From assembly GCA_964441155.1 (NCBI GenBank), contig CAYYKL010000001.1, forward strand, positions 88,393 to 152,392: DNA of 64,000 bases, read 5' to 3'. Within the stretch, counting starts at the first letter, position 1. Each line of letters starts with the position of its first letter. Shown in pieces: positions 5,495 through 37,001 of the stretch. The notes below the pieces were generated by a model. That model was not told the origin of the DNA. It saw only the letters and a program-made list of their open reading frames with translations, and did not search any database. The position numbers and the translations under genes were made by a program. The stretch is from an uncultured Pseudomonadales bacterium (GTDB lineage Bacteria; Patescibacteriota; Microgenomatia; UBA1400; RBG-16-45-19).

Positions 5495-5503
5495 AAGACG
5501 TGC

Positions 5504-7123: not shown

Positions 7124-7232
7124 TTAAGCAATACCGGACAAAGAATCGACTTCATGTAAAAGGCGCTGTATAGCACGCTTGCCGTAAACCATAGTACGAT
7201 ACCTATGACTTCTAACCATTTACTGTTTATGG

Positions 7233-14179: not shown

Positions 14180-14467
14180 ATGAATAAGCAGTTAGAAAAC
14201 ATACAATCAAAAGCTCTGCCAATTTTAAAACAATATGGCGTAACTCAAGCGGGTATATTTGGATCAAGAGCCACTAATTTTGATTCCAAGTCTAGCGATG
14301 TGGATTTACTCATTGATGCGCCAGATTCACTATCTATATTTGACCTGCTTAAGCTCAAACATTCTCTGGAAGACTCACTGGGTATTCCCGTAGATTTAGT
14401 TGAATATAAGCTCCTCAAACCTTTTATTAAAAAGCGCGCACTCCAAGAAGAAATTAGGATTTTATGA
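14180..14467 (+). CDS. mntA: MntA-type nucleotidyltransferase antitoxin
   Basis: 95 aa. GIFGSRATNFDSKSSDVDLLID matches the minimal nucleotidyltransferase GS...DxD motif. Confidence 0.75.
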   Translation: MNKQLENIQSKALPILKQYGVTQAGIFGSRATNFDSKSSDVDLLIDAPDSLSIFDLLKLKHSLEDSLGIPVDLVEYKLLKPFIKKRALQEEIRIL

Positions 14468-14811
14468 ATCCCGTTGATCCCCGCCAGCACCTTCAAGACG
14501 CGTTAGACTCTATCCAGCAAATTCAGCAGTATTTTGAAGGCAAAAAGTCTGTTGATCTTGAAGAAAATGATATGCTTTTTGATGCCATTTTGATGCGCTT
14601 GCAAGTAATCGGAGAGGCAGTCAAAAAATTACCCAAACCTATGCATGAGCAGCATCCCCAGATTCCTTGGCGAGAAATTATCGCCTTAAGAAATTATATT
14701 TCTCATGCATATAGCTTTTTAGATGCAAGCAGGTTTTACACCATAATTGTCGACGATTTACCTAAGTTGCAAAAAGTTTTGCGCGAATTATTTTCCAAAT
14801 CTGATCAATAG
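14464..14811 (+). CDS. hepT: HepT (DUF86/HEPN) toxin
   Basis: 115 aa. LRNYISHAY matches the HEPN R-x4-H-x-Y motif. There is a 4-bp overlap with the upstream mntA. Confidence 0.75.
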
Positions 14812-14822
14812 GTTTTATTTCC

Positions 14823-15758
14823 ATGAATAACACTTTTTGGCAAAAAAAACGCGTTTTGGTCACTGGTGCTCATGGCTTTTTGGGCAAACACTTAGTTGAT
14901 CAACTCAGAAAGACTAAAGCTGAACTGATTACTCCAACTTCAGATGAGTGCGATCTTCGAGACTTGAGTCAAGTTCAACGAATTGTCAAAGACATTGATA
15001 TTGTCATTCACTTAGCTGCCAAAGTCGGTGGCATTGGTTACAATCAACAAATTCCGGGAGAAATGTTTTACGACAATGTGATCATGGGCGCCCAGCTCAT
15101 GGAAGAGTCTCGCAAAGCAGGGGTGAAAAAATTTGTAGCTCTAGGCACCATTTGCGCTTATCCGAAATTTACGCCCATTCCTTTCAAAGAAGAGGATTTG
15201 TGGAATGGCTATCCAGAAGAAACCAACGCTCCCTATGGCCTGGCCAAAAAAATGCTGCTGGTCCAGGCACAAGCCTATAGGCAACAATATGGTTTTAATG
15301 CCATTTATTTGCTCCCCGTGAATATGTATGGACCGGGTGATAACTTCGACCCGGAGTCTTCGCACGTTATCCCAGCACTCATCAAAAAATTCATTGAGGC
15401 TAAAGACAAAAAGCAAAAGACAGTTTCTGTTTGGGGCACCGGCAATCCTACCCGAGAATTTCTCTATGTCGAAGATGCAGCTCGAGGGATAATTCTAGCA
15501 ACTGAAAAATATAACGGCAGCGAACCTGTCAACTTAGGCAGCAGCCACGAAATTAGCATTCGTGAACTTGCCGAAACAATTAAAGATTTGATCGGTTATG
15601 ATGGAGCCATTGCGTGGGATGTCTCAAAACCCGACGGCCAACCAAGGAGAAAGCTGGATACGAATAAAGCAAAAGATCTTTTTGCTTTTGAAGCTTCAAC
15701 AAACTTTACTAATGGATTGCCGAGAGCAATTGACTGGTATCGACAAAAACGTGACTAA
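14823..15758 (+). CDS. fcl: GDP-L-fucose synthase
   Basis: Collinear with E. coli Fcl: [11 protein letters not shown]...ICAYPK...[11 protein letters not shown]...[21 protein letters not shown]...[18 protein letters not shown]...[12 protein letters not shown]. Confidence 0.85.
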
Positions 15759-15795
15759 AACCACTGTTATTACTCCAAAATCTTCCATTTTTTCA

Positions 15796-16569
15796 ATGGC
15801 TTACTTGATGGAAATTGTCGAGTTTCGGGATCTATTAAAAACGTTTGTTTCAAGAGATATTCGCGTACGCTATAAGCAAACAATTATTGGCGGAGCCTGG
15901 GCAATCGCACAGCCTTTTGCAACAATGGTAGTTTTCTCCTTCTTCTTTGGAAAATTGGCTAAAATGCCTTCGGACAACATTCCTTATCCAATTTTTTCTT
16001 ATGCTGGCCTTCTGCTTTGGACCTATTTTTCTAACGCCCTCACCACATCGGCAAGTAGCTTAGTAGGAAACACCAATTTGATCACAAAAATATATTTTCC
16101 ACGTATTATTATTCCAGTGGCTGCCACTCTGACTGGACTTCTTGATTATGCAATTTCCTTTATCATTATGGTTGGAATGATAATTTGGTTCCAGACGCCT
16201 ATAAGTTGGAATATTTTGTTTTTACCTTTAGTGCTAATTATCACCTGGTTACTTGCATGTGGCTTGGGTCTTTGGCTGTCAGCACTCAATGTTAAATTCC
16301 GTGATGTTCGCTTCGTAATCCCATTTTTTTTACAGTTGTTAATGTATATTACTCCAGTCATTTATCCAGCATCTGTTGCTGATCGATTTCGCTTTGTTTT
16401 AGCACTTAATCCAATGACTGGACTAATTGAAACTCATCGAGCAGTGTTGCTGGCTCAAAAAATTCCTTGGATAGAATTGAGCTGGTCGGTAGTCTATACC
16501 CTCCTTATTGTAATTTTTGGTGTTGTATATTTTAGAAAAGTAGAGAGAAGTTTTGCGGACATAATCTGA
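15796..16569 (+). CDS. wzm: ABC-2 type polysaccharide export permease
   Basis: About 258 aa with six TM helices and the ABC-2 signature region. The track ORF at 15598 overlaps fcl, and the first ATG after the fcl stop is at 15796 (MAYLMEIVEF). Confidence 0.8.
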   Translation: MAYLMEIVEFRDLLKTFVSRDIRVRYKQTIIGGAWAIAQPFATMVVFSFFFGKLAKMPSDNIPYPIFSYAGLLLWTYFSNALTTSASSLVGNTNLITKIYFPRIIIPVAATLTGLLDYAISFIIMVGMIIWFQTPISWNILFLPLVLIITWLLACGLGLWLSALNVKFRDVRFVIPFFLQLLMYITPVIYPASVADRFRFVLALNPMTGLIETHRAVLLAQKIPWIELSWSVVYTLLIVIFGVVYFRKVERSFADII

Positions 16570-16571
16570 GT

Positions 16572-17819
16572 ATGAACAATGACACAGTTATTCAAGTTGA
16601 AAATTTGGCCAAATTTTATCGCATAGGCGAGCGTCAGTCGTATCTTACGCTTAGAGACCAACTTGCTCGATTAGCGCTTTCTCCCTTTACATCTCGAAAA
16701 ACTGATCCTGTCAATGAATTTTGGGCTTTGCGTGATGTTTCATTTGAAGTAGCTCGGGGGGAAGTAGTGGGAATTATTGGAAAAAACGGTGCTGGAAAAT
16801 CGACGCTTCTGAAAATCATTTCTCGTATTACTGAGCCAAGCGCAGGTAAAATTACCTTGCACGGCAGTGTGGCTTCGCTGCTAGAGGTAGGCACAGGGTT
16901 TTCTCCAGAATTAACTGGCCGAGAAAATATTTTTCTTAATGGTTCAATTCTGGGTATGTCTAAGCAAGAAATAAGGAAAAAATTTGACGAAATTGTTGAT
17001 TTTTCTGGCGTGGAACAATTTTTAGATACACCAGTCAAACGCTATTCATCTGGCATGTATGTTCGTCTAGCCTTTGCAGTTGCAGCTCATTTAGACTCAG
17101 AAATTTTATTGGTTGATGAAGTATTGGCAGTTGGAGACGTTGAATTCCAAAAGAAGTGCTTACAAAAAATGCAGGCTATTACCAAGGGAGGCAGAACCAT
17201 ATTGTTCGTCAGTCATAACTTGGCTGCTATCGAGGCGTTGTGTAACCGAGGAATTATTTTAGAAACAGGAAGAGTTACCTATAGTGGAAAATCTTCTAAC
17301 GCCGTGCGCCATTATTTAGAACAGCAAAAAGTCCCATCGGATGAAAATTTGTTAAATAGGAAAGACAGACAAGGTGATGGAAGAGTGAAAATTAGTGGAT
17401 TTAGAATTCTAAATCAACAAAAAGAAATCGTAAGCTCAATGATGAGCGGAGACAATTATTGCTTTGAGATCGACTACCATAAATTTGTATCTGAAAAGCT
17501 CAAGAATGTGGTGGTGGGAATTAGTATTTATGATGAATTAAATATTCGTGTTATGGAGTTGCGCACATCATTTTCTAATGCAAATTTGAGCCTGACTGAG
17601 CAAAAGGGTAAAATCCAATGCTTAGTCAACGACTTGCCATTGACATTAGGAAGTTATACTTTTTCGTTAATTTTGACAGCTAATGATATAGAAATGCATG
17701 ATCTTCTCGAGTCTGCATACGCTTCTAGTGTTGATGGTGGTGATTTTTTTGGTACGGGAAAAGTTGGTAATCCTGATCGCTGCAAAATTCTTATAAGAAC
17801 TTCATGGCTATTGGGCTGA
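16572..17819 (+). CDS. wzt: ABC transporter ATP-binding protein with C-terminal extension (Wzt/TagH-like)
   Basis: Walker A GKNGAGKST, signature YSSGM, Walker B LLVDEVLAVGD. About 165 aa follow the NBD, comparable to the Wzt glycan-terminus-binding domain. Confidence 0.85.
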   Translation: MNNDTVIQVENLAKFYRIGERQSYLTLRDQLARLALSPFTSRKTDPVNEFWALRDVSFEVARGEVVGIIGKNGAGKSTLLKIISRITEPSAGKITLHGSVASLLEVGTGFSPELTGRENIFLNGSILGMSKQEIRKKFDEIVDFSGVEQFLDTPVKRYSSGMYVRLAFAVAAHLDSEILLVDEVLAVGDVEFQKKCLQKMQAITKGGRTILFVSHNLAAIEALCNRGIILETGRVTYSGKSSNAVRHYLEQQKVPSDENLLNRKDRQGDGRVKISGFRILNQQKEIVSSMMSGDNYCFEIDYHKFVSEKLKNVVVGISIYDELNIRVMELRTSFSNANLSLTEQKGKIQCLVNDLPLTLGSYTFSLILTANDIEMHDLLESAYASSVDGGDFFGTGKVGNPDRCKILIRTSWLLG

Positions 17820-17828: not shown

Positions 17829-19028
17829 ATGTTGAAGAAATTACTACCCCTTGTTTCTCGAGCCTTTGGATCTACCGGCAAATTATTGATTCGGGCTGCA
17901 AAACAAATGCACACCTACGAGTTTTTTGAAAATATCAACACAACTAAGCTTCCTGCCAAATCCAAAAGAGCGCTTATTATTTATGACACCTATGCTCTGC
18001 CTTATTTTTTGAATGATAAATTGGAATCATTCCCATATTTACAGAGCCATACAATGTACTGGGAAAGTTGCGAATTAGCACGTCTATTGAATCAATATGG
18101 ATACATTGTCGATTATTTGCATTACGCTTCAGATCGATCAATTGCATGGGAGAAGTATAGCCTTGTGATTGATTCTATGAACCATTTGCCAAATCATACG
18201 GTTAAAGGACAACAACGAGTTTACTACACAACACATTGTCATTGGTTATTTAATAATCAAGCAGAACTGCGAAGGCTCAATCAATTTCGAACTCGACATC
18301 ACCTTAACTTGCCACCAACACGCCAACTCACTTTTGGAAATGCTGATGAACAAGCTGACTACCTTACTTACTTTGGAACCGATTTTTTGCTAAACTCCGG
18401 ATATAGTCACGATCTAAAATCGTTTCCCTTGTCGATTAGCAGCTGCTACTCACCAACTACTTTTTCAGATGTTTCGAGCAAAGATTTATCTCAATTTTTA
18501 TGGTTAGGAGGTGCAGGAGGTGTGCACAAAGGGTTAGACTTGGCTGTTGAGGCAATTGAAAAAATACCCCAGGCGAAACTTCATGTTGTAGGTGGTTTTG
18601 AGTCTGAACCTCAATTTGACCACTGGTTAAAAGCGAGAAGTCGAAATGAGCCTAGAATTATTCTTCATGGTAGATTGCAAACTGATTCAGCGGTCTTTGA
18701 GCAAATTGCCCAAAATTGCATTGGAATCGTCTACCCCAGTTGCGCCGAGGGAGGTCCGGGATCGGTAGCGCAAGCATTGCACTTTGGATTGATACCCATA
18801 GTCACCAATAGCAGCAATGTTCGAGCAGAAGATTTGGGTTTTGTGATTTCTGAGCATGATGACGTGCCCATAATTGATTCTCTTATGGGACATATCGAAA
18901 CAGTGATGTCAATGCAGGTTAGTCAAGCAAACAAGCACAAGCGAACGATTAGAGCATATGCGCAGTCTCATCATACGCGCCAAGCATATTCTCAAAGCAT
19001 TATTCAACTCATAGAGGAATTCCAATGA
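17829..19028 (+). CDS. Glycosyltransferase, GT4-like C-terminal domain
   Basis: C-terminal CAEGGPGSVAQALHFGLIPIVTN resembles the GT-B E..G....EA...G.P motif. The N-terminal half is unassigned. Confidence 0.5.
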   Translation: MLKKLLPLVSRAFGSTGKLLIRAAKQMHTYEFFENINTTKLPAKSKRALIIYDTYALPYFLNDKLESFPYLQSHTMYWESCELARLLNQYGYIVDYLHYASDRSIAWEKYSLVIDSMNHLPNHTVKGQQRVYYTTHCHWLFNNQAELRRLNQFRTRHHLNLPPTRQLTFGNADEQADYLTYFGTDFLLNSGYSHDLKSFPLSISSCYSPTTFSDVSSKDLSQFLWLGGAGGVHKGLDLAVEAIEKIPQAKLHVVGGFESEPQFDHWLKARSRNEPRIILHGRLQTDSAVFEQIAQNCIGIVYPSCAEGGPGSVAQALHFGLIPIVTNSSNVRAEDLGFVISEHDDVPIIDSLMGHIETVMSMQVSQANKHKRTIRAYAQSHHTRQAYSQSIIQLIEEFQ

Positions 19029-20041
19029 CTTTGATCTCTAATGGGTTGCGATACCTAACAAATAGCTGCAGACAATGGCAGCGAGTGAGTATTAGGAATC
19101 GTCAGCGTGATGATATGGCTAAAATCTATGATGGAATGGTTGAGCGGGTTCCCGCCAAAACCATAAAAAAACACATTCATTCAAAAATGGCTCCTGAAAT
19201 TGAAAGAATTATTGACTTCGTAGATCGATATCGAACTTTAGAACCACCTTCGATTCCTCAACGAAACTACACCTCTATATCAGTGGTTATTCCTCATTAT
19301 CACCACTATGAATACTTAGATCTTGCTTTGACTTACCTAGAACGTCAGACAGATAAAGCAGAAGAGGTGCTCATAGTCGATGATATTTCTCCTGATCAGT
19401 CTAGACTGCTCTCTGTGATTAAAGCTCACCAAAAAAAATTACCACTTCGTCTCCTTAAGCCAAAGTTAAAATTGTATCCGGCGAAAGCCAGACAGTATGG
19501 CGCTGAAAACGCCAAAAGTGATGTATTGCTTATGCATGATGCTGACGATATCTCGCATAAAAATCGGATAGCATTAACCAGGTCTTTCTTTCAATCTAAT
19601 AAAAACGCTATGCAGCTAAATATTGGCTATGTGGAATTTTATAAGAAAGCTTTTTTTGATTATTTGGGGGATTTTTCAAATCTGATTTTGGATGATTACG
19701 TAGTGACCACGTCTGAAATTATCCAAGCAATGCGGGCGAAATTTATTAACCAACAACTTTCCATCCCCGATGCTTTCCGAGTACATTTTGGCGGATATGG
19801 CGCTAAGGGTAAATTTGGTTTCTTACCTCAATCCGGGCATGTTGCGTATCGAAAAGAAGTGGTTTCCCAAGTGGCTTGGACCTCCACACCAACCAACTAT
19901 ATTTTTACCCATTTTGAAGACTTTGAGTTTAATTTTTTATTATTGCTTGCTTTTCAAGCATCCTATCAATTGGATATACCCTTGATCTATTATCGTCGAT
20001 TCACGTCTACCAATGTTGTGAGTAATTATCGAGTTATTTGA
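19025..20041 (+). CDS. Glycosyltransferase family 2
   Basis: ISVVIPHYHHYEYLDLALTYLERQT...LIVDDISPD...LMHDADD, which is GT-A with DxD. 4-bp overlap with the upstream gene. Confidence 0.6.
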   Translation: MTLISNGLRYLTNSCRQWQRVSIRNRQRDDMAKIYDGMVERVPAKTIKKHIHSKMAPEIERIIDFVDRYRTLEPPSIPQRNYTSISVVIPHYHHYEYLDLALTYLERQTDKAEEVLIVDDISPDQSRLLSVIKAHQKKLPLRLLKPKLKLYPAKARQYGAENAKSDVLLMHDADDISHKNRIALTRSFFQSNKNAMQLNIGYVEFYKKAFFDYLGDFSNLILDDYVVTTSEIIQAMRAKFINQQLSIPDAFRVHFGGYGAKGKFGFLPQSGHVAYRKEVVSQVAWTSTPTNYIFTHFEDFEFNFLLLLAFQASYQLDIPLIYYRRFTSTNVVSNYRVI

Positions 20042-20052: not shown

Positions 20053-20829
20053 ATGAAAAATAAAATATTAAACCCGCTGAGGCGGGCTATTCTTATCGCG
20101 GTTCACCAAAGTCGAGAAGGTCACATTCCAAGTGCATTGTCGATTTTAGACATCGTATGGGTATTGTATGACGGTATCCTACGGATTAACTCAACATCAG
20201 TATCTGACCCAAATCGTGATTTCTTTATATTGAGTAAGGGCCAAGCTTCGCTGGCGCTGTACACCGTGTTGGCAGAGAAAGGATTTATTACTCACGAGGA
20301 TGTTCAGCACTATTGCAATATTGATGGCATTTTAGGAGGACATCCGGATCGTACAAAAGTGCCTGGAGTTGAAGTGTCTACCGGATCTCTAGGCCATGGC
20401 TTTCCTATGGCAGTGGGCATTGCCCTGGGAAACCGACTAGCAAAACGCACTAATCGCACATTCGCATTAATTGGGGACGGAGAAGCAAATGAAGGCACAG
20501 TTTGGGAGGCAGCTCTCTTGGGTGCCCATCACAAACTTTCAAATTTAACATTGATTATTGATCATAACCACTCGACAGATCGGGCTTTAATGGTAGATGA
20601 TCTGGCTCAAAAATTTAATAGTTTCGGCTGGTGTGTTTTGGAAACCAATGGACATGACCACGCCCAGCTTGAAACTGCATTAACAACTACAGATCCCATT
20701 AAACCTATGGCTATTGTTGCCCACACAATAAAAGGCCACGGCATTCCTGAAATGGAAAATAATTGGTCCTGGCATCATAAAGCACCGACCGATGATGAGT
20801 TATCCGTTTTCTTGAAGGAATTGAAATGA
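20053..20829 (+). CDS. Transketolase, N-terminal (TPP-binding) subunit
   Basis: HIPSALS...GHPDR...GSLGHGFPMAVGIALG...ALIGDGEANEGTVWEAAL...IIDHN, the classic split-transketolase N half. Confidence 0.85.
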   Translation: MKNKILNPLRRAILIAVHQSREGHIPSALSILDIVWVLYDGILRINSTSVSDPNRDFFILSKGQASLALYTVLAEKGFITHEDVQHYCNIDGILGGHPDRTKVPGVEVSTGSLGHGFPMAVGIALGNRLAKRTNRTFALIGDGEANEGTVWEAALLGAHHKLSNLTLIIDHNHSTDRALMVDDLAQKFNSFGWCVLETNGHDHAQLETALTTTDPIKPMAIVAHTIKGHGIPEMENNWSWHHKAPTDDELSVFLKELK

Positions 20830-21707
20830 GAAAACAATTCGCAAGCACTGTCGGCGAATTGATGGGTCAGAATGAACGAGTGGTAACCTTGTTGGGTGAT
20901 ATTGGAGTGTGGGGTTTTAACCAAGTGTTTACAGACTATCCGGAGCGCATATACAACGTTGGTATACTCGAGCAAGCCACTATTAGCATGGCGGCTGGGC
21001 TGGCATTAACTGGGTTTATTCCGGTAGTTCATACCATTGCCCCTTTCTTGGTTGAGCGTGCTTTGGAACAACTAAAAGATGATTTTGGCTATCAGCACTT
21101 GGGTGGCAACTTTGTGAGCGTGGGAGCTTCGTATGATTACGCTAGCCTAGGCTGCACTCATCATTGTCCGGCGGATGTAGGCATCTTGAGTCGGATTCCG
21201 GGCATGGAGATTATTGTGCCGGGTACGGCAGTAGAATTTGATCAATTGTTTCGTTTTTACTATGACGACGGCAATCCAACCTATTTCCGATTAAGCGAAC
21301 GTAGTAATACCGAAAGTAATTTTACAGAACCTGGCAAGGCTGTGGCGATTCAATCAGGAAAGCAAGCCACTATTGTGTGCGTGGGACCAACTCTCGATCG
21401 AGTGATGGAAGCTGCGACGAACAAAGATGTTGGTGTTATATACTACTCAGTGGTCAAACCATTTGATGCAGAAACCTTACGAGAAACAACATATTCAGAT
21501 AAAGTACTGTTGGTTGAACCCTATTATGAGGGCGTATTAACCAGTGAGGTGACTCGAGCATTTTATCCGAAAGCAATTAAACTTGACTACATGGGAGTGC
21601 CACACACCTTTTTGCATAATTATGGCAATGCTGAGCAGCATGACGCGCAAATTAACTTAACTGCCGATGCGATAGCCAATCGCCTAGAAAGGTTGATTCA
21701 TGCATAA
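20826..21707 (+). CDS. Transketolase, C-terminal (pyrimidine-binding) subunit
   Basis: 293 aa with GYQHLGGNFVSVGASYDY and a transketolase C-terminal half. 4-bp overlap with the N-terminal subunit. Confidence 0.8.
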   Translation: MRKQFASTVGELMGQNERVVTLLGDIGVWGFNQVFTDYPERIYNVGILEQATISMAAGLALTGFIPVVHTIAPFLVERALEQLKDDFGYQHLGGNFVSVGASYDYASLGCTHHCPADVGILSRIPGMEIIVPGTAVEFDQLFRFYYDDGNPTYFRLSERSNTESNFTEPGKAVAIQSGKQATIVCVGPTLDRVMEAATNKDVGVIYYSVVKPFDAETLRETTYSDKVLLVEPYYEGVLTSEVTRAFYPKAIKLDYMGVPHTFLHNYGNAEQHDAQINLTADAIANRLERLIHA

Positions 21708-22716
21708 GCTGAGTCAGTTTTTGTTAGACGATGCGCGCAGCATTGGGGAACGGGTAGACTGGACCCCGCTGGATGGCAAGTCATTGATGATAACGGGTGC
21801 TTCAGGCTTGATCGGACACTACTTACTTGCTTCTCTGACTCATGCTCGAGAAAGCCATGATTTTACTGTGATTGCAGTGTTTCATAGTGAACCGGAGCCA
21901 TATTTGCAAAACATTTTGTCAAAGATCAGCGCCACTGTGTATGTAGGGGATTTGACCGATGAAACTTTATTTTCACAATTACCCCAGTCTGACATGATTA
22001 TTCATGCCGCAGGCTATGGACAACCGGGCCGATTTTTGGAAAATAAATCCAAAACGCTCAAGTTAAATACGTTTGCAACTTTTAAATTGCTTGATTTGCT
22101 TAATCCAAGGGGGCGATTTTTGTTTGTGAGCAGTAGTGAAATTTACAGTGGCTCTCCAAATTCTCCCTACAAAGAAGCAAATATTGGCACTACCACACCA
22201 CTACATCCTCGAGCCTGCTACATTGAGGGAAAACGCGCGGGTGAAACTATAAGCCTTAATTATAGTCGTGAACATGTATCTACGGTGGTTACCCGACTAT
22301 CATTAGCGTATGGACCCGGTACAAAACGACATGATCAGCGCGTTTTGAACAACTTCATTGAAAAAGGCTTAGGTGGCAAGATTGAACTTATGGATGCAGG
22401 CGTAGCTTTACGAACGTATGTGTATGTCACTGATGCGGTTGAAATGTTGTGGAAGATGTTATTGTCTGGCAAAGAACTTGTATATAACTTGGGCGGACAT
22501 TCGCGCTCATCAATTGCTGACCTAGCAAAACTAATTGGAGACTTGATGCAGGTTCCTGTGCTTGTGCCAAAAGTCAGCCAAACAGTATCCGGTGCGCCCG
22601 ACGACGTGTCGCTTGATATGACTCTGGCAGAAAACGAGTTTGGTAAACCTGATTATGTAACGATAGAAGAAGGTTTGAAACGCACCATTGCTTGGCAAAG
22701 GATGATCTATTCATGA
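21700..22716 (+). CDS. NAD-dependent epimerase/dehydratase (extended SDR)
   Basis: LMITGASGLIGHYL glycine-rich motif, SSSEIY, and YIEGKR (YxxxK). Substrate unknown, and it is not a canonical Gmd. Confidence 0.65.
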   Translation: MHKLSQFLLDDARSIGERVDWTPLDGKSLMITGASGLIGHYLLASLTHARESHDFTVIAVFHSEPEPYLQNILSKISATVYVGDLTDETLFSQLPQSDMIIHAAGYGQPGRFLENKSKTLKLNTFATFKLLDLLNPRGRFLFVSSSEIYSGSPNSPYKEANIGTTTPLHPRACYIEGKRAGETISLNYSREHVSTVVTRLSLAYGPGTKRHDQRVLNNFIEKGLGGKIELMDAGVALRTYVYVTDAVEMLWKMLLSGKELVYNLGGHSRSSIADLAKLIGDLMQVPVLVPKVSQTVSGAPDDVSLDMTLAENEFGKPDYVTIEEGLKRTIAWQRMIYS

Positions 22717-23477
22717 AAGCTCTTCTTTTTGATATCCGATATCACTTGATTCGGTGGTGGAACCGACAAATACGCCGTCAGGCGATTCAGGATGATTTTG
22801 ACTGGAGCGAGTATCATATCCATTATTTGGGCGAGCTTGAAGATACCAAAAACAAAGTGACTCATCGATTGAAAAAAGGAGACTATATTTTTGTCAATGG
22901 CAGTTTAAAAAAGAAAAAGAAAGTCTTACCGCTCCATCCCAATCATAGACTGCTCTACGAAACGTTATTGCAGCTCAAGTCAGAAAGTATTTTGGAAGTT
23001 GGCAGTGGTGGCGGTGATCATTTATGGAATATGAGCCTGTTATCGCCCAAGCTTAAATTGTATGGTGTGGATTTATTAAAAACACAATTGGAGTTGCAAA
23101 AACGACGTTCTCCTACGCTGAAAGCCATGATCAAGCAAAGAGACATCACGTTACCATATTCGAAAGAAATACCTTCCGTTGATTGCGTATATTCTCAAGC
23201 AGTGATTATGCATATTCATGCTGGCAATGGTCACTTGGTAGCGTTGAGTAATATGTTTCAGGCTGCAATGAATCAAGTTGTGCTTATGGAAAATTGGGGC
23301 AAGCATCAGTTTATGTCAGACATTCTGATGTTACATAAACATGGCATGATTCCTTGGAATACAGTGTACTTTTATTTCCGCCGTTCACCAGAGCTAGGAA
23401 ACGTGCCACATTTAATGGTAGTGTCTCGTGTTAAGCTTGATTACGAACCGCTTACTGATTACCAACTGCTGGCTTGA
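22713..23477 (+). CDS. Class I SAM-dependent methyltransferase
   Basis: ILEVGSGGGDHL (motif I) and LYGVDL. The track ORF starts at a TTG at 22692. The ATG at 22713 gives a 4-bp overlap with the upstream stop. Confidence 0.5.
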   Translation: MKALLFDIRYHLIRWWNRQIRRQAIQDDFDWSEYHIHYLGELEDTKNKVTHRLKKGDYIFVNGSLKKKKKVLPLHPNHRLLYETLLQLKSESILEVGSGGGDHLWNMSLLSPKLKLYGVDLLKTQLELQKRRSPTLKAMIKQRDITLPYSKEIPSVDCVYSQAVIMHIHAGNGHLVALSNMFQAAMNQVVLMENWGKHQFMSDILMLHKHGMIPWNTVYFYFRRSPELGNVPHLMVVSRVKLDYEPLTDYQLLA

Positions 23478-23485
23478 GGAGAAGA

Positions 23486-24253
23486 ATGAAATTGATGGGA
23501 TTTGATGTTCCACTCAAACCTTTTTTGCCGCCTATCTTACACGATCGGTTGGTAGGTAGTTATTCACAAATAAAAGGCAGTGAACTACAAAAAAAAGGTT
23601 TTAATGCCGAGAAGAAAGAGCCTTTCATTCACTCTCGCTTTAACTCATTTAGTGGACCTCAACACGAAGATTTATTAGTTGATTATCTGCTTGGCTTTCC
23701 GAAAAAGGGCTTTTACGTAGATGTAGGCGCCAATGATCCAGATTTTTTAGGCCACACACAAAGGTTTTATAATAAGGGCTGGAGAGGAATTAACATTGAA
23801 CCCCAAAAAAAATTATGGCACAAACTAAATAAAAAAAGAGCTGAAGACATCAATCTATGCTTAGCAGTTGCTAATGAGTCAGGGACCAAAACTTTCTACT
23901 CCTTACCTCACAGAAACGACGGCTCATCACTAAACTTGACTATGGCTGAGCTTAATAGCAGCTGGCACCACGCAGAAATTCAACCAATAGAGGTATCTGT
24001 CCAGCCATTAAGTGCACTTTTCACTAAATATTTAAAAACTAGTACCATTGATTTCATGTCTGTTGATGTAGAAGGATATGAATTATCGGTGCTGGAAAGT
24101 AATGATTGGGATCGATTCCGCCCTACACTACTCATAGTAGAAATTGCACATTTCAATAACAACAAAATTATTTCTTACCTTAAAAAGCAAGGTTACACAC
24201 TTTTGTATAATAATTATGTTAATGGTATTTTTATGGATCAGGCTTGTATTTGA
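23486..24253 (+). CDS. FkbM-family methyltransferase
   Basis: GFYVDVGANDPDFLGHTQRFYNKGWRGINIEPQ matches the Methyltransf_21/FkbM motif. The track start at 23474 is TTG. Confidence 0.7.
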   Translation: MKLMGFDVPLKPFLPPILHDRLVGSYSQIKGSELQKKGFNAEKKEPFIHSRFNSFSGPQHEDLLVDYLLGFPKKGFYVDVGANDPDFLGHTQRFYNKGWRGINIEPQKKLWHKLNKKRAEDINLCLAVANESGTKTFYSLPHRNDGSSLNLTMAELNSSWHHAEIQPIEVSVQPLSALFTKYLKTSTIDFMSVDVEGYELSVLESNDWDRFRPTLLIVEIAHFNNNKIISYLKKQGYTLLYNNYVNGIFMDQACI

Positions 24254-24264
24254 AGGAATTTAAT

Positions 24265-25191
24265 ATGCATAAATCAATTACGCTGGTTACCGGATCAAAG
24301 GGATTACTGGGCAACGCATTGCGGTCGCTAAAGCCTCACAACACCATTTTCCTAGATAGAGAAGATGTAGACCTCAGAGATTTTAATGCTACTAAAACTT
24401 TATTTCACTACCTGAAGCCAGATCGTATTATCCATTTGGCGGCAGTTGTGGGAGGCTTGGGCAGCAACATGATCCATTCCGGAGAGTATTTTCGCAGCAA
24501 CATCGCTATCAATACAAATGTGCTTGAGTCTGCAAGATTGGCTGGTACGAAAAAATTGATATCGTATATGTCCACATGTGTGTTTCCGGAAAATGCGGCA
24601 TACCCTCTTAATGAGAAGGACTTGCATAACGGAGCTCCTCATCCATCTAATTTTGGCTATGCCTACGCAAAACGAATGCTAGAAGTCCAAAGCAGTGCCT
24701 ATCGGCGAGAATGGCAGTGCGATTACATTATTGCCATTCCGACCAATATGTATGGACCGCATGATTATTGGAGTTTGGAGAATGGCCATGTCGTGCCCTC
24801 TTTAATTCATAAGTGTTACTTAGCTAAGAAAAATAAGACTTCTCTGACTATTTGGGGGAGTGGCAAACCACTTCGTGAATTTGTATTTGCACGCGATATT
24901 GCTCAACTCAGTCTATGGGCGTTAGATGAATACGAAGAAGCGGCACCCATCATTTTATCGTCTGGAGAAGAAATTAGCATTAGAGATTTGGTAGACCTAA
25001 TCGTGCAACTAATGAAGTTTAAAGGAAAAGTTCATTTTGATTTGGATAAACCAGATGGACAGATCAGAAAGCCATCAGATGTTGGCAAGCTGAAGCAGCA
25101 TTTACCACATTTCAAATTCACCCCAATCGAGGTTGGTTTACAAGAGACAATCGAGTGGTTTGAGAGTCATTACCCAGACGTAAGATTGTAA
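24265..25191 (+). CDS. GDP-L-fucose synthase-like SDR (second Fcl paralog)
   Basis: ITLVTGSKGLLG...CVFPE...FGYAYAKRMLEV...NMYGPHDYWSLENGHVVPSLI...IWGSGKPLREFVFARD...DKPDGQIRK. The track start at 24244 is TTG. The ATG at 24265 has AAGGAA 7 nt upstream. Confidence 0.75.
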   Translation: MHKSITLVTGSKGLLGNALRSLKPHNTIFLDREDVDLRDFNATKTLFHYLKPDRIIHLAAVVGGLGSNMIHSGEYFRSNIAINTNVLESARLAGTKKLISYMSTCVFPENAAYPLNEKDLHNGAPHPSNFGYAYAKRMLEVQSSAYRREWQCDYIIAIPTNMYGPHDYWSLENGHVVPSLIHKCYLAKKNKTSLTIWGSGKPLREFVFARDIAQLSLWALDEYEEAAPIILSSGEEISIRDLVDLIVQLMKFKGKVHFDLDKPDGQIRKPSDVGKLKQHLPHFKFTPIEVGLQETIEWFESHYPDVRL

Positions 25192-25193: not shown

Positions 25194-26123
25194 ATGGCCA
25201 AGCAAATTCGATTAGTAGCTACAGATTTTGAGAGAGCATTTGGGAGCCCACTTTCTCGTAGAGTCAAGCAGAGGTTGGAACAAAAGCGCATAGTGTTGGA
25301 GCCATTGTCAATTACAGAGAGAGACCACGTCATTCAACAAATAATCAATACTTTGCTAGATCCCAGCATCATACCGGCTGGCAAACATCGCCGATCTCAA
25401 TGGGAAACGGGCTGGAGAGAAAATCTGATCCTGTATCAAGAAACTAATAGCTTGACTACTATACTACCTCGTTATTTTGGCAAGTATCCTTATGTAAGAT
25501 TTGAAGGTGAGTTTTTTCGAACAGCACATGATAATACAGAATATCTCATGCTTGAAGTGTTGTTGGATTGGTTGTTTGACAAATACCTAGCGAATAAACC
25601 AGTTGTGTATGAATTCGGTTGTGGAACTGGTCATAACTTATTACGATTGAGAGAAATCAATTTAGATGCGGAGCTATGGGGACTAGATTGGGCTGAGTCC
25701 TCTCAGAAAATACTGTCAGAATATGTTTCCAAAGGCATGATCACTAAACTTAATGCCAATAAATTTGATTATTTTGAACCAGATTATAACTTCAACCTAG
25801 CACCTGAATCAGCTCTGTTTACCGTGGCTTCCTTAGAACAAATTGGGAATCAGTATGTCCCGTTTGTTGATTACGTGTTACAGAAAAAGCCTTCCTTGTG
25901 CTTACATATTGAGCCAATGGCAGAACTCCTTGATTCCAATCGACTGCCAGATTTTCTGTCAATTGCATACTTTAGCAAGCGCAATTATTTGTCTGGATAC
26001 GTTGAGTATTTAAAAAAACTTGAGAGTGAGGACAAGCTAGAGATTCTTCTAGCTCAACGATCTAACATTGGCAGTATGTTTGTTGATGGATACTCAATTG
26101 TTGTTTGGCGCCCACTTCAATAA
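25194..26123 (+). CDS. Class I SAM-dependent methyltransferase
   Basis: VVYEFGCGTGHNLLRL (motif I) and LWGLDWAE. Confidence 0.55.
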   Translation: MAKQIRLVATDFERAFGSPLSRRVKQRLEQKRIVLEPLSITERDHVIQQIINTLLDPSIIPAGKHRRSQWETGWRENLILYQETNSLTTILPRYFGKYPYVRFEGEFFRTAHDNTEYLMLEVLLDWLFDKYLANKPVVYEFGCGTGHNLLRLREINLDAELWGLDWAESSQKILSEYVSKGMITKLNANKFDYFEPDYNFNLAPESALFTVASLEQIGNQYVPFVDYVLQKKPSLCLHIEPMAELLDSNRLPDFLSIAYFSKRNYLSGYVEYLKKLESEDKLEILLAQRSNIGSMFVDGYSIVVWRPLQ

Positions 26124-26133: not shown

Positions 26134-26982
26134 ATGTCTCACTCGCCATTTGTTTCCCTTGTAATTGTGACATTTGGTAGGTCAGATTATTTGGAACAAC
26201 TAATTGGTTCTATTCGTGAAACCTCACCTTCACATGAGCGCGAAGTAATAGTGGTTTCTTCAGACCCCAGAGAAAGCAAGAAAGCGAAATGGCTGAGGCA
26301 ACAAAAAGACCTTGTTACGTTATTTGTTGATGAGCGGCTACCTGGCCAGACACGTAAAAAAAGCTTATATTACTATACCAATTACGGTCTTAAAGCGGCT
26401 AAGGGAGAGTGGTTATTCGTCCTAAACGACGACATGAAAATGTCGAAGAATTGGTTTAGAGAGCTAAAATCCACAGTCAGCCAACATTCAAATGTGGGCA
26501 TGATAATTACCGCTAGCCATATTGGCGCAACTAACCTGGGACCTCGAATTCCAATAATAGGAAAGGTGCGCCAAAAAAATGACTCTTGGCGAAATATTTA
26601 TTTAGCTGATGTAGCAGTTATCCGCTCTAATGTGCTGGAATCAGTGGGTTATTTTGATGAACATATGGATTGGTATGGCAGCGGAGTTGATAATTCTTTA
26701 AAAATCGAATTACTCTCTGAATACCAGGTTATAACCAATTCAAAAATTGTGATCGACCACTTCATTGCCAGTGAATTAAGAGAGGTTAATAGAGGAACAG
26801 CATTTTGGGATTTTAATTATATTCACCGAAAATGGCAAAAGTGGGGTAAAAAGAACTCCGTGGAAATTCAAGTTACTTTGGGAACAAAACCCTATAGCAT
26901 CCTTTCGGTATCAAGCCAGGTTGCTCAAGATTTAAACCATTTGGTTTTTCGCTGGATTAAGCAATGGCTTAGTCGCCTATGA
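26134..26982 (+). CDS. Glycosyltransferase family 2
   Basis: VSLVIVTFGRSDYLEQLIGSI...VIVVSSDP...VLNDDMKM. The ATG at 26134 follows the upstream stop at 26123. Confidence 0.65.
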   Translation: MSHSPFVSLVIVTFGRSDYLEQLIGSIRETSPSHEREVIVVSSDPRESKKAKWLRQQKDLVTLFVDERLPGQTRKKSLYYYTNYGLKAAKGEWLFVLNDDMKMSKNWFRELKSTVSQHSNVGMIITASHIGATNLGPRIPIIGKVRQKNDSWRNIYLADVAVIRSNVLESVGYFDEHMDWYGSGVDNSLKIELLSEYQVITNSKIVIDHFIASELREVNRGTAFWDFNYIHRKWQKWGKKNSVEIQVTLGTKPYSILSVSSQVAQDLNHLVFRWIKQWLSRL

Positions 26983-28019
26983 AAAAAAGAGTTTCCTTTC
27001 TAGTTAAAGACGAATGTTTTCTTAATAACAGATTTTTTGCTCGAAATGATTCGCTTATGCGCGATGGACTGAATGATAGGTATATTGCATTCTATGACTT
27101 ATTAACAAAATTTGACATTGAGATCGGGACTCAAGATTTAGTAGACCCCAGGAGCGCAGATCTGGTAATCATGCATGATTTTAGTCCAAAACTTTGGAAT
27201 TTGATTCCCAACAAAAAAAATATTAAGAAGTACCTTTTGGCATATGAGCCACAGGTGGTCAACAACGATAATTGGAAAACAAGCACGTTAGCGCTTTTTG
27301 ATAGGGTTTTTACCTGGAATTTAAAGCTCATCAACAATAAACATGTAATTTGGCTTCCCCTGAGCATGCGTCTCGAATTTGCTGAAGCTAATTGGGAACA
27401 GTTTAGACAAAGGATTTTTTGCGGTTCTGTATATAGTTTTAAACCAAGCTCAAAAAAGAATTCTCTCTATAATAATCGACTTTTTGATACTCTATCTCTT
27501 TCTAGATTAAATCCAGGTCAAGTGCATTTATATGGCCAGGGTTGGAGCCGTATTGCCGAAAATAACCTCAACATAATCGGAAAGTTATCATTGTTATTCC
27601 AGTTAAGAGGATTTCTACCATCAGAAATAATGTCTATTTATCGCGGCACTATAGAGAAGAAAAACCCAACGCTGAGACAATATAAATTTAGTTTATGTTA
27701 TGAAAATATGAGCGGTGTTTCTGGATTTGTGACAGAAAAACTTTTTGACGTAATGAAGGCAGGATCTATCCCAATATATCTAGGCGCACAAGATATAACT
27801 GACCTCGTACCCGAAAGCTGTTATATTGACAGACGAAAATTCAGATCAATCGGCAATCTAAATTCCCATCTTCACTCATTTAATTCAGAAGATTACAACT
27901 ACATGCTGATGGCTCAGGAAAAATTTGTAAAAAGTCATTTTGGAAATATCTTTCAAGCTTCAACTTGGGCAAAGACTTTAGGGGAATGGTTATTGCGTGA
28001 TTTGGATCTCGAGCAGTAG
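26979..28019 (+). CDS. Alpha-1,3-fucosyltransferase (GT10)
   Basis: YKFSLCYENMSGVSGFVTEKLFDVMKAGSIPIYLG is near-identical in pattern to the H. pylori FutA/FutB motif YKFNLCFEN..GYGYVTEKI.DAYFSHTIPIYWG. Confidence 0.75.
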   Translation: MKKRVSFLVKDECFLNNRFFARNDSLMRDGLNDRYIAFYDLLTKFDIEIGTQDLVDPRSADLVIMHDFSPKLWNLIPNKKNIKKYLLAYEPQVVNNDNWKTSTLALFDRVFTWNLKLINNKHVIWLPLSMRLEFAEANWEQFRQRIFCGSVYSFKPSSKKNSLYNNRLFDTLSLSRLNPGQVHLYGQGWSRIAENNLNIIGKLSLLFQLRGFLPSEIMSIYRGTIEKKNPTLRQYKFSLCYENMSGVSGFVTEKLFDVMKAGSIPIYLGAQDITDLVPESCYIDRRKFRSIGNLNSHLHSFNSEDYNYMLMAQEKFVKSHFGNIFQASTWAKTLGEWLLRDLDLEQ

Positions 28020-36964: not shown

Positions 36965-37001
36965 TCTTTATATAATGATTGAGCATGAACCTGGAGCAAG
37001 A

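Follow-up and report, generated by a model that had tools for sequence, protein, structure and literature searches.

A split transketolase-family gene pair at the core of an uncharacterised gene cassette common to many bacterial phyla and phages

Among the described systems that come closest to the genes studied here, those of yersiniose A (YerE/YerF), ErwE and MMAR_2332 combine a 4,6-dehydratase, a PLP/PMP 3-dehydrase, a ThDP enzyme and a reductase in LPS/glycan loci. YerE-type enzymes place a C2 or longer unit onto the C4 ketone of a 3,6-dideoxy-4-keto nucleotide sugar, the acceptor of YerE itself being CDP-3,6-dideoxy-4-keto-D-glucose (PMC12247030). For the hydroxyacetyl branch of miharamycin and amipurimycin, split-gene transketolases (TKs) with a ketone acceptor have been proposed, and 13 split TKs of Streptomyces BGCs are described; TK action on a sugar ketone is a proposal only, unproven in vitro even for miharamycin (PMC12247030). 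AniP (anisomycin), another biosynthetic TK relative, is a single chain of 603 aa without the histidine-rich motif and acts on aromatic keto acids. Finally, the GDP-L-colitose and GDP-L-fucose pathways (Gmd, ColD, ColC/GFS) operate without a ThDP enzyme, a UXS-like SDR or a methyltransferase of the U313 type described below. A full-text literature search turned up no glycan locus with a characterised split TK.

We report that TktN and TktC, a split pair of TK-family genes in a 64-kb stretch of DNA (hereafter the window), are the core of an uncharacterised gene cassette that is common to many bacterial phyla and phages. Most likely, the cassette attaches a C2 unit to an activated deoxy-sugar bound for a surface polysaccharide. 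The original prediction held that split TKs of polysaccharide clusters are already thought to make higher-carbon or branched sugars; what the searchable literature contains is an untested proposal for Streptomyces nucleoside-antibiotic clusters only, and none for glycan loci (PMC12247030).

Gene order in the window and in related loci

The arrangement on which the original prediction was built, i.e., a split pair with an ATGA overlap, a GT2 gene upstream and an SDR gene plus methyltransferase genes downstream, was recovered at exactly the same positions (Table 1). In the ATGA at 20826-20829 the stop codon of TktN overlaps the start codon of TktC, and the start ATG of the SDR gene (21700) sits 8 nt inside the end of TktC, a second overlap on which the original prediction is silent. 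The absence of a pentose-phosphate context, likewise claimed, was borne out: every annotated gene across the 64 kb is glycan-related, glycan genes continue in the flank outside the window, and neither pentose-phosphate genes nor a second tkt were found within the 64 kb. With its Wzm/Wzt genes, the locus belongs to the glycan pathways that depend on an ABC transporter. No Gmd gene is present in the window; the gene at 13204-14175 was considered for this role and ruled out by its scores (Table 1), which identify a GalE-like epimerase. Nor does the window have a ColD-like gene, and the U313 methyltransferase is carried instead. There were no tRNA or Rfam matches in the window, and a scan of it for promoters and terminators gave a signal no better than that of shuffled sequence.

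Table 1. Positions of the genes discussed in the text, numbered from the first nucleotide of the window
Feature	Position	Strand	Size and evidence
Gene with UXS motifs	12246-13235		
GalE-like epimerase	13204-14175		192 bits GalE, 79 bits TIGR01472
Second Fcl of the window	14823-15758		
Wzm/Wzt ABC exporter	15598-17819	+	ABC2_membrane; ABC_tran + Wzt_C
GT2 gene, upstream of TktN	19025-20041		
TktN	20053-20829	+	258 aa; Pfam Transketolase_N (PF00456), E=1.3e-38
TktC	20826-21707	+	293 aa; Transket_pyr (PF02779), 3.5e-21; Transketolase_C (PF02780), 6.7e-07
UXS-like extended SDR, third gene of the trio	21700-22716	+	PF01370, 4e-39
Class I methyltransferase, Methyltransf_11	22692-23477	+	Domain match
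FkbM-family methyltransferase	23474-24253	+	PF05050, 6.7e-29
Fcl-B, GDP-L-fucose-synthase-like	24244-25191	+	319 bits against human GDP-L-fucose synthase (4bkp)
U313, divergent class I SAM methyltransferase	25194-26123	+	AF2 model and Foldseek
GT10-family, fucosyltransferase-like glycosyltransferase	26979-28019	+	PF00852, 7e-15

The strong domain matches, together with the recurrence of the exact proteins on independent assemblies with the same neighbours, indicate that TktN and TktC are genuine genes and not chance ORFs. Their clade is compact and divergent, and at a cutoff of E<=1e-30 it amounts to 223 clusters (50% identity) in a set of 1.84 billion representatives; its members are 55-65% identical to one another, and the nearest relatives of the window cassette are only 60-65% identical to it. 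Many close homologues come from Patescibacteria. A pattern scan of 185,579 species representatives gave 417 matches, which is a lower bound, and the cassette is on this count absent from most genomes.

The order TktN>TktC>SDR is conserved in 61 viral contigs and in 79 bacterial loci; the latter represent at least 10 phyla, including Patescibacteria, Proteobacteria, Verrucomicrobiota, Omnitrophota and Bacteroidota, and Prosthecobacter and Humidesulfovibrio are among the carriers. The SDR gene follows TktC in 69 of the 79 bacterial and 57 of the 61 viral loci. The overlap of TktC with the SDR gene measures 8 nt in 21 bacterial loci and 4 nt in a further 13; at the TktN-TktC junction, most related loci show anything from an overlap of 4 nt (-4) to a spacing of approximately +17 nt. 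TktN/TktC and the translationally coupled UXS-like SDR may be viewed as a portable three-gene unit, and one locus carries two copies of the cassette. The Methyltransf_11 and FkbM genes are window-specific insertions, as homologues of these were present in only five and one of the 79 related loci, respectively. Verrucomicrobial loci have a D-2-hydroxyacid dehydrogenase gene nearby. Wzm-Wzt lies directly upstream of TktN in approximately 20 related loci. The Wzt nucleotide-binding domain is 56-63% identical across 21 loci, but only one of these conserves the C-terminal domain as well, which leaves unsupported the notion that the product of the cassette is a chain cap read by the carbohydrate-binding domain of Wzt.

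Some of the viral contigs with the trio have portal and terminase genes alongside. Compact phage operons show the order RmlC-like > TktN > TktC > SDR > ColD-like > Gmd, such that the trio is nested between the RmlC-like epimerase and ColD/Gmd with genes overlapping, and FkbM and TylF-type methyltransferase genes are interleaved in the phage cassettes. ORFs situated between TktN and TktC in phage loci were considered as homing endonucleases and turned out to be TylF, Methyltransf_24 and FkbM methyltransferases. None of the cultured phages in INPHARED has the TktN/TktC family, and TktC matched no PHROG family.

Domain affinity and active site of TktN and TktC

TktN and TktC have the split architecture of the Carboxydothermus-type enzyme (C. 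hydrogenoformans TK, ChTK; 6yak/6yaj), in which the PP domain, which binds the ThDP diphosphate, and the pyrimidine-binding Pyr plus TKC domains are separate chains encoded by adjacent genes. Pfam searches returned only Transketolase_N, Transket_pyr and Transketolase_C, and the TPP_enzyme N/M/C architecture of AHAS/POX-like enzymes is absent. YerE, by comparison, is a single chain of this decarboxylase (AHAS/POX-like) superfamily and uses pyruvate and CDP-sugars, whereas TktN/TktC represents two chains of the TK family in a GDP context.

TktN is clearly TK-like (196 bits against the N chain of the C. hydrogenoformans split TK, 6yak; 133 bits for Transketolase_N versus 26 bits for DXP_synthase_N), and when E. 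coli TktA was compared with the window by tblastn, nothing but TktN matched, the C-terminal half of TktA giving no match to TktC. Against the C chain of the split TK, TktC reaches no more than 83 bits, which is near its DXS scores (68 bits for the DXS Pyr/C-terminal region), and its AF2 model (pLDDT 89.7) is as much like the latter region (TM 0.85-0.90) as like ChTK-C (TM 0.83-0.85). Given a predicted TktC structure equally close to DXS and to TK, pyruvate is a conceivable donor. DXS differs in being a single chain and in keeping the phosphate-binding Arg.

With TktA and ChTK the pair shares the fold, the ThDP/Mg motif, the activating Glu and the donor histidines. Specifically, D142 and N172 of TktN correspond to E. 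coli D155 and N185 in the ThDP/Mg2+ GDG-X(n)-N motif and are invariant among 120 homologues, and E49 of TktC, equivalent to the cofactor-activating E411, is also invariant. In transketolase the histidines H26, H66, H100, H261 and H473 bind the donor hydroxyls. TktN keeps H26, H100 and H261 (as H24, H97 and H241), and the donor-site H473 is conserved as H112 of TktC; the H66 equivalent is Gln64 in the window TktN, with H in 104 and Q in 16 of the 120 family members. D469, which selects the stereochemistry of the acceptor 2-OH in transketolase, is replaced by L108 in TktC, and L is found at this position in all 54 viral (54/54) and in 53 of the 55 bacterial copies.

In E. coli TK and DXPS the substrate phosphate is bound by R358, S385, H461 and R520 (PMC11387542). 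R358 (R2 in TktC) is the sole residue kept of these four; H461 is replaced by G100, R520 by E158, which is a charge reversal, and S385 by G30, an assignment that falls in a loop and is alignment-dependent. E. coli residues 455-470 were aligned by HMMER pairwise alignment to 6yaj combined with motif anchoring. The kept and lost TktC positions are near-invariant in the 120 homologues as well as in the 55 bacterial and 54 viral copies. Judging from the sequences, the catalytic machinery is intact and the sugar-phosphate site dismantled, and the loss of three of the four phosphate-binding residues and of D469 argues that TktN/TktC is not a pentose-phosphate transketolase. In these losses, and in belonging to a glycan locus and not to central metabolism, the pair differs from TktA and ChTK.

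AniP resembles TktN/TktC in that its phosphate residues are not conserved and position 520 is acidic, the R520 to D change accompanying inactivity on G3P (PMC11387542), but TktN/TktC is split and keeps the histidine motif. A split TK encoded on a Streptomyces clavuligerus plasmid in a secondary-metabolite context is 39% identical to TktC and shares the H461 and D469 losses. Likened by description, the miharamycin/amipurimycin split TKs also have an adjacent oxidoreductase in a sugar-tailoring cluster; they belong to actinomycete secondary metabolism, whereas the TktN/TktC clade is a separate family that occupies surface-glycan loci of many phyla and phages.

Partner enzymes of the cassette

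The closest solved relative of the SDR is human UDP-glucuronate decarboxylase, at only 115 bits, and its residues N123, S144/S146-E147, Y174 and K178 are conserved family-wide. It belongs to the nucleotide-sugar class (extended SDR, UXS/RmlB-like) and is as similar to redox-neutral 4-oxidising enzymes (UXS, RmlB) as to simple reductases.

Moreover, the cassette travels with enzymes of GDP-6-deoxyhexose metabolism, namely Gmd and a clade of Fcl-like proteins, plus either a ColD-like 3-dehydratase or a SAM methyltransferase; these partners are homologues of the GDP-L-colitose/GDP-L-fucose enzymes Gmd, ColD and ColC/GFS. Gmd and its Fcl-like and ColD-like companions belong to the GDP-4-keto-6-deoxymannose pathway; the cassette-linked Gmd is canonical (PF16363, 508 bits). 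The 'aminotransferase' beside the SDR gene was considered as a perosamine synthase and is ColD-like by score (ColD, 218-240 bits; perosamine synthase, 107-134 bits) and has an HH motif. It is present in half of the cassettes. U313 matched no Pfam family above threshold; its AF2 model (pLDDT 94) has the small-molecule O-/C-methyltransferases NcsB1 and AtmM as best Foldseek matches (E ~1e-8 to 1e-9), and the gene is found in 47 of the 79 bacterial and 28 of the 61 viral loci. In the viral loci the ColD-like and U313 genes are anti-correlated (counts 27 / 26 / 2 / 6, Fisher p = 2.6e-9), and at least 14 switches between them map on the TktC tree. The two are thus alternatives, almost mutually exclusive, which fits both acting at the same position beside the 4-ketone. 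With respect to the yersiniose systems, the set of 4,6-dehydratase, 3-dehydrase, ThDP enzyme and reductase is seen in the ColD-flavour bacterial and phage loci; the window, without Gmd and ColD, has a methyltransferase (U313) in place of the 3-dehydrase.

Fcl-B keeps S110, C112, K143 and H182, which are conserved in the cassette-linked clade, and the Y-x-x-x-K motif is present in the window copy; we take S/C/Y/K/H to be the catalytic set of the GDP-L-fucose synthase 3,5-epimerase/4-reductase. It is 60% identical to cassette-linked copies from other phyla and only 35-37% to Gmd-linked Fcl and to the second Fcl of the window; Fcl-B is a cassette-linked paralogue in a clade distinct from Gmd-linked Fcl. 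Downstream of the cassette, GT10-like genes are seen in 13-14 related bacterial loci, and they occur in phage loci too; both GT10 and GT11 fucosyltransferase-like genes are found near cassettes, which fits a GDP-linked, fucose-like product. In the window the GT10 gene is the candidate transferase for such a product.

A proposed reaction and its alternatives

The partners Gmd, ColD-like and Fcl-like point to GDP-4-keto-6-deoxyhexose chemistry, and we favour a branched sugar as the outcome. The proposal that TktN/TktC is a ThDP carboligase recruited out of sugar-phosphate metabolism into nucleotide-sugar tailoring, adding a C2 unit onto a GDP-4-keto-6-deoxyhexose to give a branched deoxysugar, stands in our judgement at about even chances. 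Starting from the observed gene structure, domains, substitutions, conservation, partners and phage carriage, we infer substrate, donor, position of attack, order of steps and product as follows. GDP-mannose would be converted to GDP-4-keto-6-deoxyhexose via a 4,6-dehydratase, after which, in other loci, the ColD-like 3-dehydratase would take off the 3-OH, and in the window U313 would probably mask it. The resulting 3-modified GDP-4-keto sugar would be the carbonyl acceptor for TktN and TktC, acting together as a heteromeric ThDP-dependent carboligase of the TK family. A C2 unit loaded on ThDP, with a ketose or hydroxypyruvate as donor (glycolyl unit) or perhaps derived from pyruvate, would be joined to the C4 ketone, and the SDR would reduce the resulting keto function. 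The Fcl-like enzyme may supply the L-configuration and/or the 4-reduction logic; because the epimerase acid/base residues of Fcl-B are kept, it would need a 4-keto sugar with C3 and C5 protons and so would not act after C4 has become quaternary. A GT10-type transferase would install the branched, methylated 6-deoxyhexose into the Wzm/Wzt-exported glycan.

Of the original reading of the pair as a sugar-biosynthetic split TK, one part stands: the trio, the lost phosphate residues and the phage copies agree with a non-housekeeping ThDP enzyme tied to an SDR and sugar modification. Its suggestion of a heptose or octose product has no specific support, given that heptose-pathway genes are absent and that the partners indicate GDP-4-keto-6-deoxyhexose chemistry.

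Other readings were weighed. It is doubtful that the trio makes a separate small block, such as a C2-C4 hydroxy-carbonyl or acid decoration or a non-phosphorylated ketose, and that the proximity of Gmd, ColD and Fcl merely reflects shared glycan clusters. Gmd, ColD-like and Fcl-like enzymes do constitute a complete colitose/fucose pathway without the trio, the D-2-hydroxyacid dehydrogenase near the Verrucomicrobial loci is in keeping with such a block, and the missing phosphate site is compatible with small non-phosphorylated substrates, as for AniP (PMC11387542). However, the SDR is of the nucleotide-sugar class (UXS/RmlB-like), no gene for handling acyl, CoA or ACP groups is retained alongside the trio across the related bacterial and phage loci, and the phage mini-operons embed the trio, genes overlapping, between RmlC-like and ColD/Gmd.

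Chain extension, the higher-carbon option of the original prediction, in which the SDR makes an NDP-hexose aldehyde or a 4-keto-5,6-ene, the TK-like enzyme adds the C2 unit at C6 to give a 6-deoxy-octulose-type sugar and the Fcl-like enzyme processes the product, is unlikely. No heptose/octose pathway genes were found in the 140 loci, no known extended SDR yields a C6 aldehyde on an NDP-sugar, and the ColD/U313 alternation touches the position beside C4 and not C6. This is to be set against the facts that aldehydes are the natural TK acceptors, that the donor-binding histidines are kept and that the epimerase/reductase residues of Fcl-B, all of which are kept, suit a 4-keto substrate that still carries hydrogens at C3 and C5; the processing of heptoses by GFS homologues in Campylobacter provides a parallel.

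UXS and UDP-apiose/xylose synthase go through 4-keto intermediates and bring about sugar rearrangement, and the resemblance of the SDR to enzymes of this type, as well as the retention of the histidines that deprotonate the donor 3-OH, would suit ThDP-dependent C-C cleavage or rearrangement. The C3-OH/C4=O of a keto-sugar, with the 4-keto group supplied by the SDR, would then serve as donor, leading to epimerisation, ring contraction or shortening. We regard this as decidedly improbable, as it has no known precedent and the ColD-like 3-dehydratase in half of the cassettes removes the 3-OH that it needs. Finally, that TktN/TktC is a housekeeping split transketolase of the pentose-phosphate pathway placed by chance in a glycan island has next to no probability, and on the residues such a role is very unlikely: C. 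hydrogenoformans possesses only a split TK (PMC7661550) and many close homologues belong to Patescibacteria with their small genomes, but three of the four phosphate residues and D469 are replaced (with charge reversal at R520), from phylum to phylum the pair keeps its synteny with SDR, Fcl and methyltransferase genes, phages carry the cassette, one locus has it twice, and most genomes lack it (417 matches in 185,579 species representatives, a lower bound).

Returning to the addition of a C2 unit to a GDP-4-keto-6-deoxyhexose, we tentatively suggest that TktN/TktC could be the first example of a new functional class, i.e., a TK-family enzyme with a nucleotide-activated keto-sugar as acceptor and thus a TK-type counterpart of YerE. 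Together with the SDR it would make an undescribed GDP-sugar, namely a 6-deoxy-3-O-methyl hexose with a 4-C-(dihydroxyethyl or hydroxyethyl) branch or the corresponding 3,6-dideoxy sugar. The pathway would have spread over at least 10 phyla by horizontal transfer, and phages would use it as an auxiliary gene set to remodel glycans of the host or the virion. If true, TktN/TktC would be the first natural TK-family enzyme shown to form a tertiary alcohol on a sugar ketone, and TK activity that forms tertiary alcohols on ketones is sought by biocatalysis groups (PMC12247030). It would also add a new branched deoxysugar and its pathway to the surface glycans, at present essentially unknown, of Patescibacteria, Verrucomicrobiota and Proteobacteria, among others, and an entire sugar-tailoring cassette would join the auxiliary genes of phages, with a bearing on receptor masking and phage-host specificity. 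Moreover, thousands of entries named 'transketolase' or 'hypothetical protein' would need re-annotation, and metabolic reconstructions may be counting such entries as pentose-phosphate enzymes.

The trio and its glycan island

Pfam matches and ORF positions agree with the original prediction of two transketolase (TK) ORFs, here TktN and TktC (see the table), and so do the predicted ATGA coupling, with the TktN stop codon and the TktC start codon overlapping at 20826-20829, and the neighbours, since domain matches place a GT2 gene upstream of TktN, and the SDR and then Methyltransf_11 and FkbM methyltransferase genes on the downstream side. The SDR gene starts 8 nt ahead of the TktC stop codon and thus translational coupling spans three genes, not two. 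Independent assemblies carry the same proteins with unchanged neighbours. A GC-rich hairpin with perfect pairing (CCCGC-TGAG-GCGGG, up to 7 pairs when extended), detected by the terminator scan on both strands, lies at 20071-20088, 18 nt inside the TktN CDS, and may affect translation initiation.

Positions of the trio and associated features (window positions unless a locus is named)
Feature	Position	Remarks
Polytopic membrane proteins	2083-12186; 43046-63184
UXS-like SDR	12246 (start)	UDP-xylose-synthase motifs STSE, CYDExKR, YGPRM
GalE-like SDR	13204-14175
MNT/HepT-type toxin-antitoxin pair	14180-14811	nucleotidyltransferase and HepT RNase
Wzm/Wzt ABC exporter	15598-17819	Wzt (16572-17819) with carbohydrate-binding domain
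TktN	20053-20829	258 aa; Transketolase_N 1.3e-38
TktC	20826-21707	293 aa; Transket_pyr 3.5e-21, Transketolase_C 6.7e-07
SDR	21700-22716	epimerase/dehydratase family; directly after TktC
Fcl-B	24244-25191	GDP-L-fucose-synthase-like
U313	25194-26123	SAM methyltransferase
GT4 genes	34732-42726	seven in tandem
Cassette region, viral locus L137	10528-14769
Cassette region, viral locus L114	6721-8667

The entire 64 kb is a glycan island encoding glycosyltransferases of families GT1, GT2, GT4, GT10 and GT11, at least six methyltransferases, one AsnB-like amidotransferase, two Fcl-like proteins and at least 14 large polytopic GT-C-like membrane proteins (PMT_2, DUF2142, YfhO/PTPS_related; 6-14 predicted TM segments). 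The number of these membrane proteins is unusual; several are distant paralogues (21-31% identity), and they run on past the window edge (flank L147). The toxin-antitoxin pair lies within the glycan operon, flanked by the GalE-like SDR and the first Fcl gene. The nucleotide-binding domain of Wzt is 56-63% identical in 21 related loci whereas the carbohydrate-binding domain has a conserved counterpart in L005 alone (45%), so the recognition domain of the exporter varies independently of the cassette.

As predicted, the trio is far from any pentose-phosphate context: neither pentose-phosphate genes nor a second stretch resembling E. coli TktA were found in the 64-kb window. Despite the two Fcl-like genes, it contains no canonical GDP-mannose 4,6-dehydratase (Gmd) gene; the upstream SDR pair (12246-14175) was ruled out as Gmd given the UDP-xylose-synthase motifs of the first member and the GalE-like character of the second. 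Together these two genes suggest a UDP-pentose branch within the same locus. Genes for a GDP-4-keto-6-deoxymannose 3-dehydratase (ColD)-like protein, an RmlC-like protein or a 2-hydroxyacid dehydrogenase are likewise absent from the window.

Active site and relatives of TktN and TktC

The family was aligned to E. coli TktA (numbering verified) and to a crystallised split TK. The cofactor motif GDG..N (TktN D142, N172), the activating Glu (TktC E49, corresponding to E411), the histidines that hydrogen bond the donor sugar (TktN H24, H97, H241; TktC H112) and R358 (TktC R2) are retained. In TktC, H461, D469 and R520 are replaced by Gly100, Leu108 and Glu158, and S385 by Gly30, the S385 equivalence being less secure because it falls in a loop. 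Kept and replaced positions are near-invariant in 120 homologues, 55 bacterial and 54 viral copies; the window TktN has Gln at the H66 position, a minority state (16/120). R358, S385, H461 and R520 make up the phosphate-binding site that TK and DXPS have in common, D469 is essential for acceptor binding and stereoselection, and in AniP an acidic residue at the R520 position accompanies inactivity on glyceraldehyde-3-phosphate (PMC11387542); the same positions have been engineered so that TK accepts non-natural aldehydes (PMC7661550). With the cofactor residues kept and the phosphate-site residues and D469 replaced, TktN/TktC is very probably an active catalyst, though not one for ordinary sugar phosphates.

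Thousands of metagenomic homologues of each chain exist at approximately 55-65% identity, many of those of TktC being named "hypothetical protein" at NCBI. TktC is remote from canonical enzymes: its bit scores are 83 with the C. hydrogenoformans split-TK C chain, 68 with DXS and 35 with human TK, and the C-terminal half of E. coli TktA gave no tblastn match to TktC. Its AlphaFold model (pLDDT 89.7) fits the split-TK beta chain (TM 0.83-0.85) as well as it fits DXS (0.85-0.90) on superposition. When 1.84 billion cluster representatives were scanned exhaustively with HMMER, only 223 clusters reached E<=1e-30, all stand-alone proteins of approximately 285-310 aa.

Remoter relatives are plasmid-borne: those of Streptomyces (39% identity) have secondary-metabolite genes around them, and that of Desulfobaculum (40%) lies in a different glycan locus. 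The split pair of the S. clavuligerus plasmid (L085, 9254-10897) has likewise lost H461 and D469, which by sequence points to a wider lineage of biosynthetic split TKs; it adjoins an MFS transporter, an NRPS condensation-domain protein and a phytanoyl-CoA dioxygenase, and probably represents an uncharacterised secondary-metabolite use of the same lineage. The distant D. bizertense pair (L084, NZ_CP090010.1, 4478-10819; 40% identity to TktC) lacks the SDR, sits among GT2 genes, glf and an ABC permease, and adjoins a second split ThDP (thiamine diphosphate) enzyme pair ("thiamine pyrophosphate-dependent enzyme" and a hypothetical protein).

The cassette in bacteria and viral contigs

Scanning 185,579 species-representative genomes revealed 417 stretches that encode a relative. 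The best 79 of these loci belong to Patescibacteria, Alpha-, Beta-, Gamma- and Deltaproteobacteria, Verrucomicrobiota, Omnitrophota, Bacteroidota, Fibrobacterota, Acidobacteriota and others, and homologues of the SDR, Fcl-B and U313 are present in 69, 52 and 47 of the 79 (median identities 49%, 59% and 47%). The order is nearly always TktN>TktC>SDR>Fcl>U313, with 8-nt and 4-nt TktC-SDR overlaps in 21 and 13 bacterial loci, and frequent neighbours are canonical Gmd, Wzm/Wzt and GT10 and GT11 glycosyltransferases. The SDR, of the extended type, keeps the catalytic set N, S-x-S-E, Y, K, and its best solved relative is human UDP-xylose synthase (only 115 bits). Fcl-B, which retains the Ser, Cys, Lys and His residues and scores 319 bits with human GDP-L-fucose synthase, constitutes its own clade: copies from different phyla share 60% identity, but Gmd-adjacent Fcl copies and the other Fcl of the window are only 35-37% identical to it. 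U313 matches no Pfam family above threshold; its high-confidence model (pLDDT 94) has a predicted class I SAM methyltransferase fold with a helical N-terminal domain and is closest to small-molecule O- and C-methyltransferases. One Syntrophorhabdaceae chromosome (L050, OY762209.1) has two TktN-TktC copies within one locus, the first followed directly by an Fcl gene and the second by SDR-Fcl-U313-GT10. The Prosthecobacter-type loci of Verrucomicrobiota (L063, L064, L069, L072, L076, L081, L082) encode, after the cassette, a D-isomer-specific 2-hydroxyacid dehydrogenase and also a TylF-like methyltransferase.

The trio also occurs in 61 IMG/VR viral contigs (L086-L146; TktN in 60, TktC in 58, SDR in 57) with the bacterial active-site signature. 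Some of these are certainly phages: portal and intein-containing T4-type large terminase genes adjoin the cassette in L137, L141 and L142, and a virion structural protein gene in L114, although such hallmark genes lie beside it in a subset of viral loci only and IMG/VR contigs may include some cellular DNA. Ribonucleotide reductase, DnaB-like helicase and DNA ligase genes are neighbours in others. Viral copies are scattered in at least 10 clades among bacterial ones; no cultured phage in GenBank/INPHARED carries the cassette and it gave no PHROG match. Besides the terminase (L137, 12226-14769), an adjoining phage UDP-GlcNAc 2-epimerase (L127, 13298-15754) contains an intein, with a LAGLIDADG endonuclease. 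In approximately 20 phage loci (including L094, L096, L099, L103, L113, L118, L122-L124, L126, L128, L131, L132, L135, L139 and L146) one or two methyltransferase genes (TylF-like, Methyltransf_24, FkbM) separate TktN from TktC, so the subunit genes do not have to adjoin or be translationally coupled.

In many phage and some bacterial loci the SDR is followed by a DegT-family gene whose product is ColD-like (218-240 bits against GDP-4-keto-6-deoxymannose 3-dehydratase, 107-134 against perosamine synthase), with a His-His motif where Lys is usual. Gene order in the most compact of the phage operons is RmlC-like epimerase > TktN > (methyltransferase) > TktC > SDR > ColD-like > Gmd. U313 and the ColD-like gene are nearly mutually exclusive: 27 viral loci have ColD only, 26 U313 only, two both and six neither (n = 61, Fisher p 2.6e-9), the bacterial figures being 9, 39, 4 and 26 (n = 78, p 0.07), and the TktC tree requires at least 14 switches between them.

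Proposed reaction and its alternatives

We regard it as established, as judged from sequence, that TktN/TktC is a cofactor-competent TK relative with a rebuilt substrate channel; also established are its being locked to a nucleotide-sugar-type SDR and the travelling of the trio with enzymes that make or process GDP-4-keto-6-deoxymannose. By analogy, the cassette appears to follow the gene logic of yersiniose biosynthesis, where a 4,6-dehydratase, a 3-dehydrase, the ThDP enzyme YerE and a reductase (YerF) lead to a C4-branched 3,6-dideoxyhexose. The acceptor of YerE is CDP-3,6-dideoxy-4-keto-D-glucose (PMC12247030). On the basis of this match, and reading substrate, donor and product from gene context alone, we propose that TktN/TktC would move a ThDP-bound C2 unit onto the C4 ketone of a GDP-4-keto-6-deoxyhexose, with reduction of the product falling to the SDR. 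With a free 3-OH beside the ketone the sugar would resemble a TK donor and invite C3-C4 cleavage; removal of the 3-OH by ColD, or its methylation by U313, would leave the ketone to serve as acceptor only, and either one blocking the 3-OH would explain their alternation. Fcl-B needs a 4-keto sugar with H at C3 and C5 and must therefore work ahead of the branching step or use another intermediate. The histidine cluster favours a hydroxylated donor (a ketose or hydroxypyruvate); the dehydrogenase adjoining verrucomicrobial cassettes, a weak hint in the same direction, could be a source of hydroxypyruvate, an irreversible C2 donor. Given the DXS-like features of TktC, the donor could also be pyruvate.

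Alternatively, Gmd, ColD and Fcl could simply make colitose or fucose, and the trio might make a separate small substituent. Chain extension at C6, i.e. the octose originally suggested, is reasonable chemistry for a TK, but no gene supports it. A role in cleavage or rearrangement is disfavoured by the presence of ColD. That TktN/TktC is the housekeeping TK is very unlikely: its active site is altered, its synteny is fixed, L050 has tandem copies and phages carry it.

For the original statement that split TKs in polysaccharide clusters are thought to make unusual sugars, we found no characterised case in the literature searched. The nearest idea is hydroxyacetyl transfer by split-gene TKs of the miharamycin and amipurimycin clusters, a proposal only, with 13 further Streptomyces candidates said to "all originate from Streptomycetes", and LPS sugar branching is assigned to YerE-like enzymes only (PMC12247030). 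Unlike the latter, TktN/TktC appears by sequence to be a TK-family, GDP-sugar-linked enzyme, and unlike the Streptomyces split TKs its clade is present in many phyla and in phages; as such, this clade would be new.
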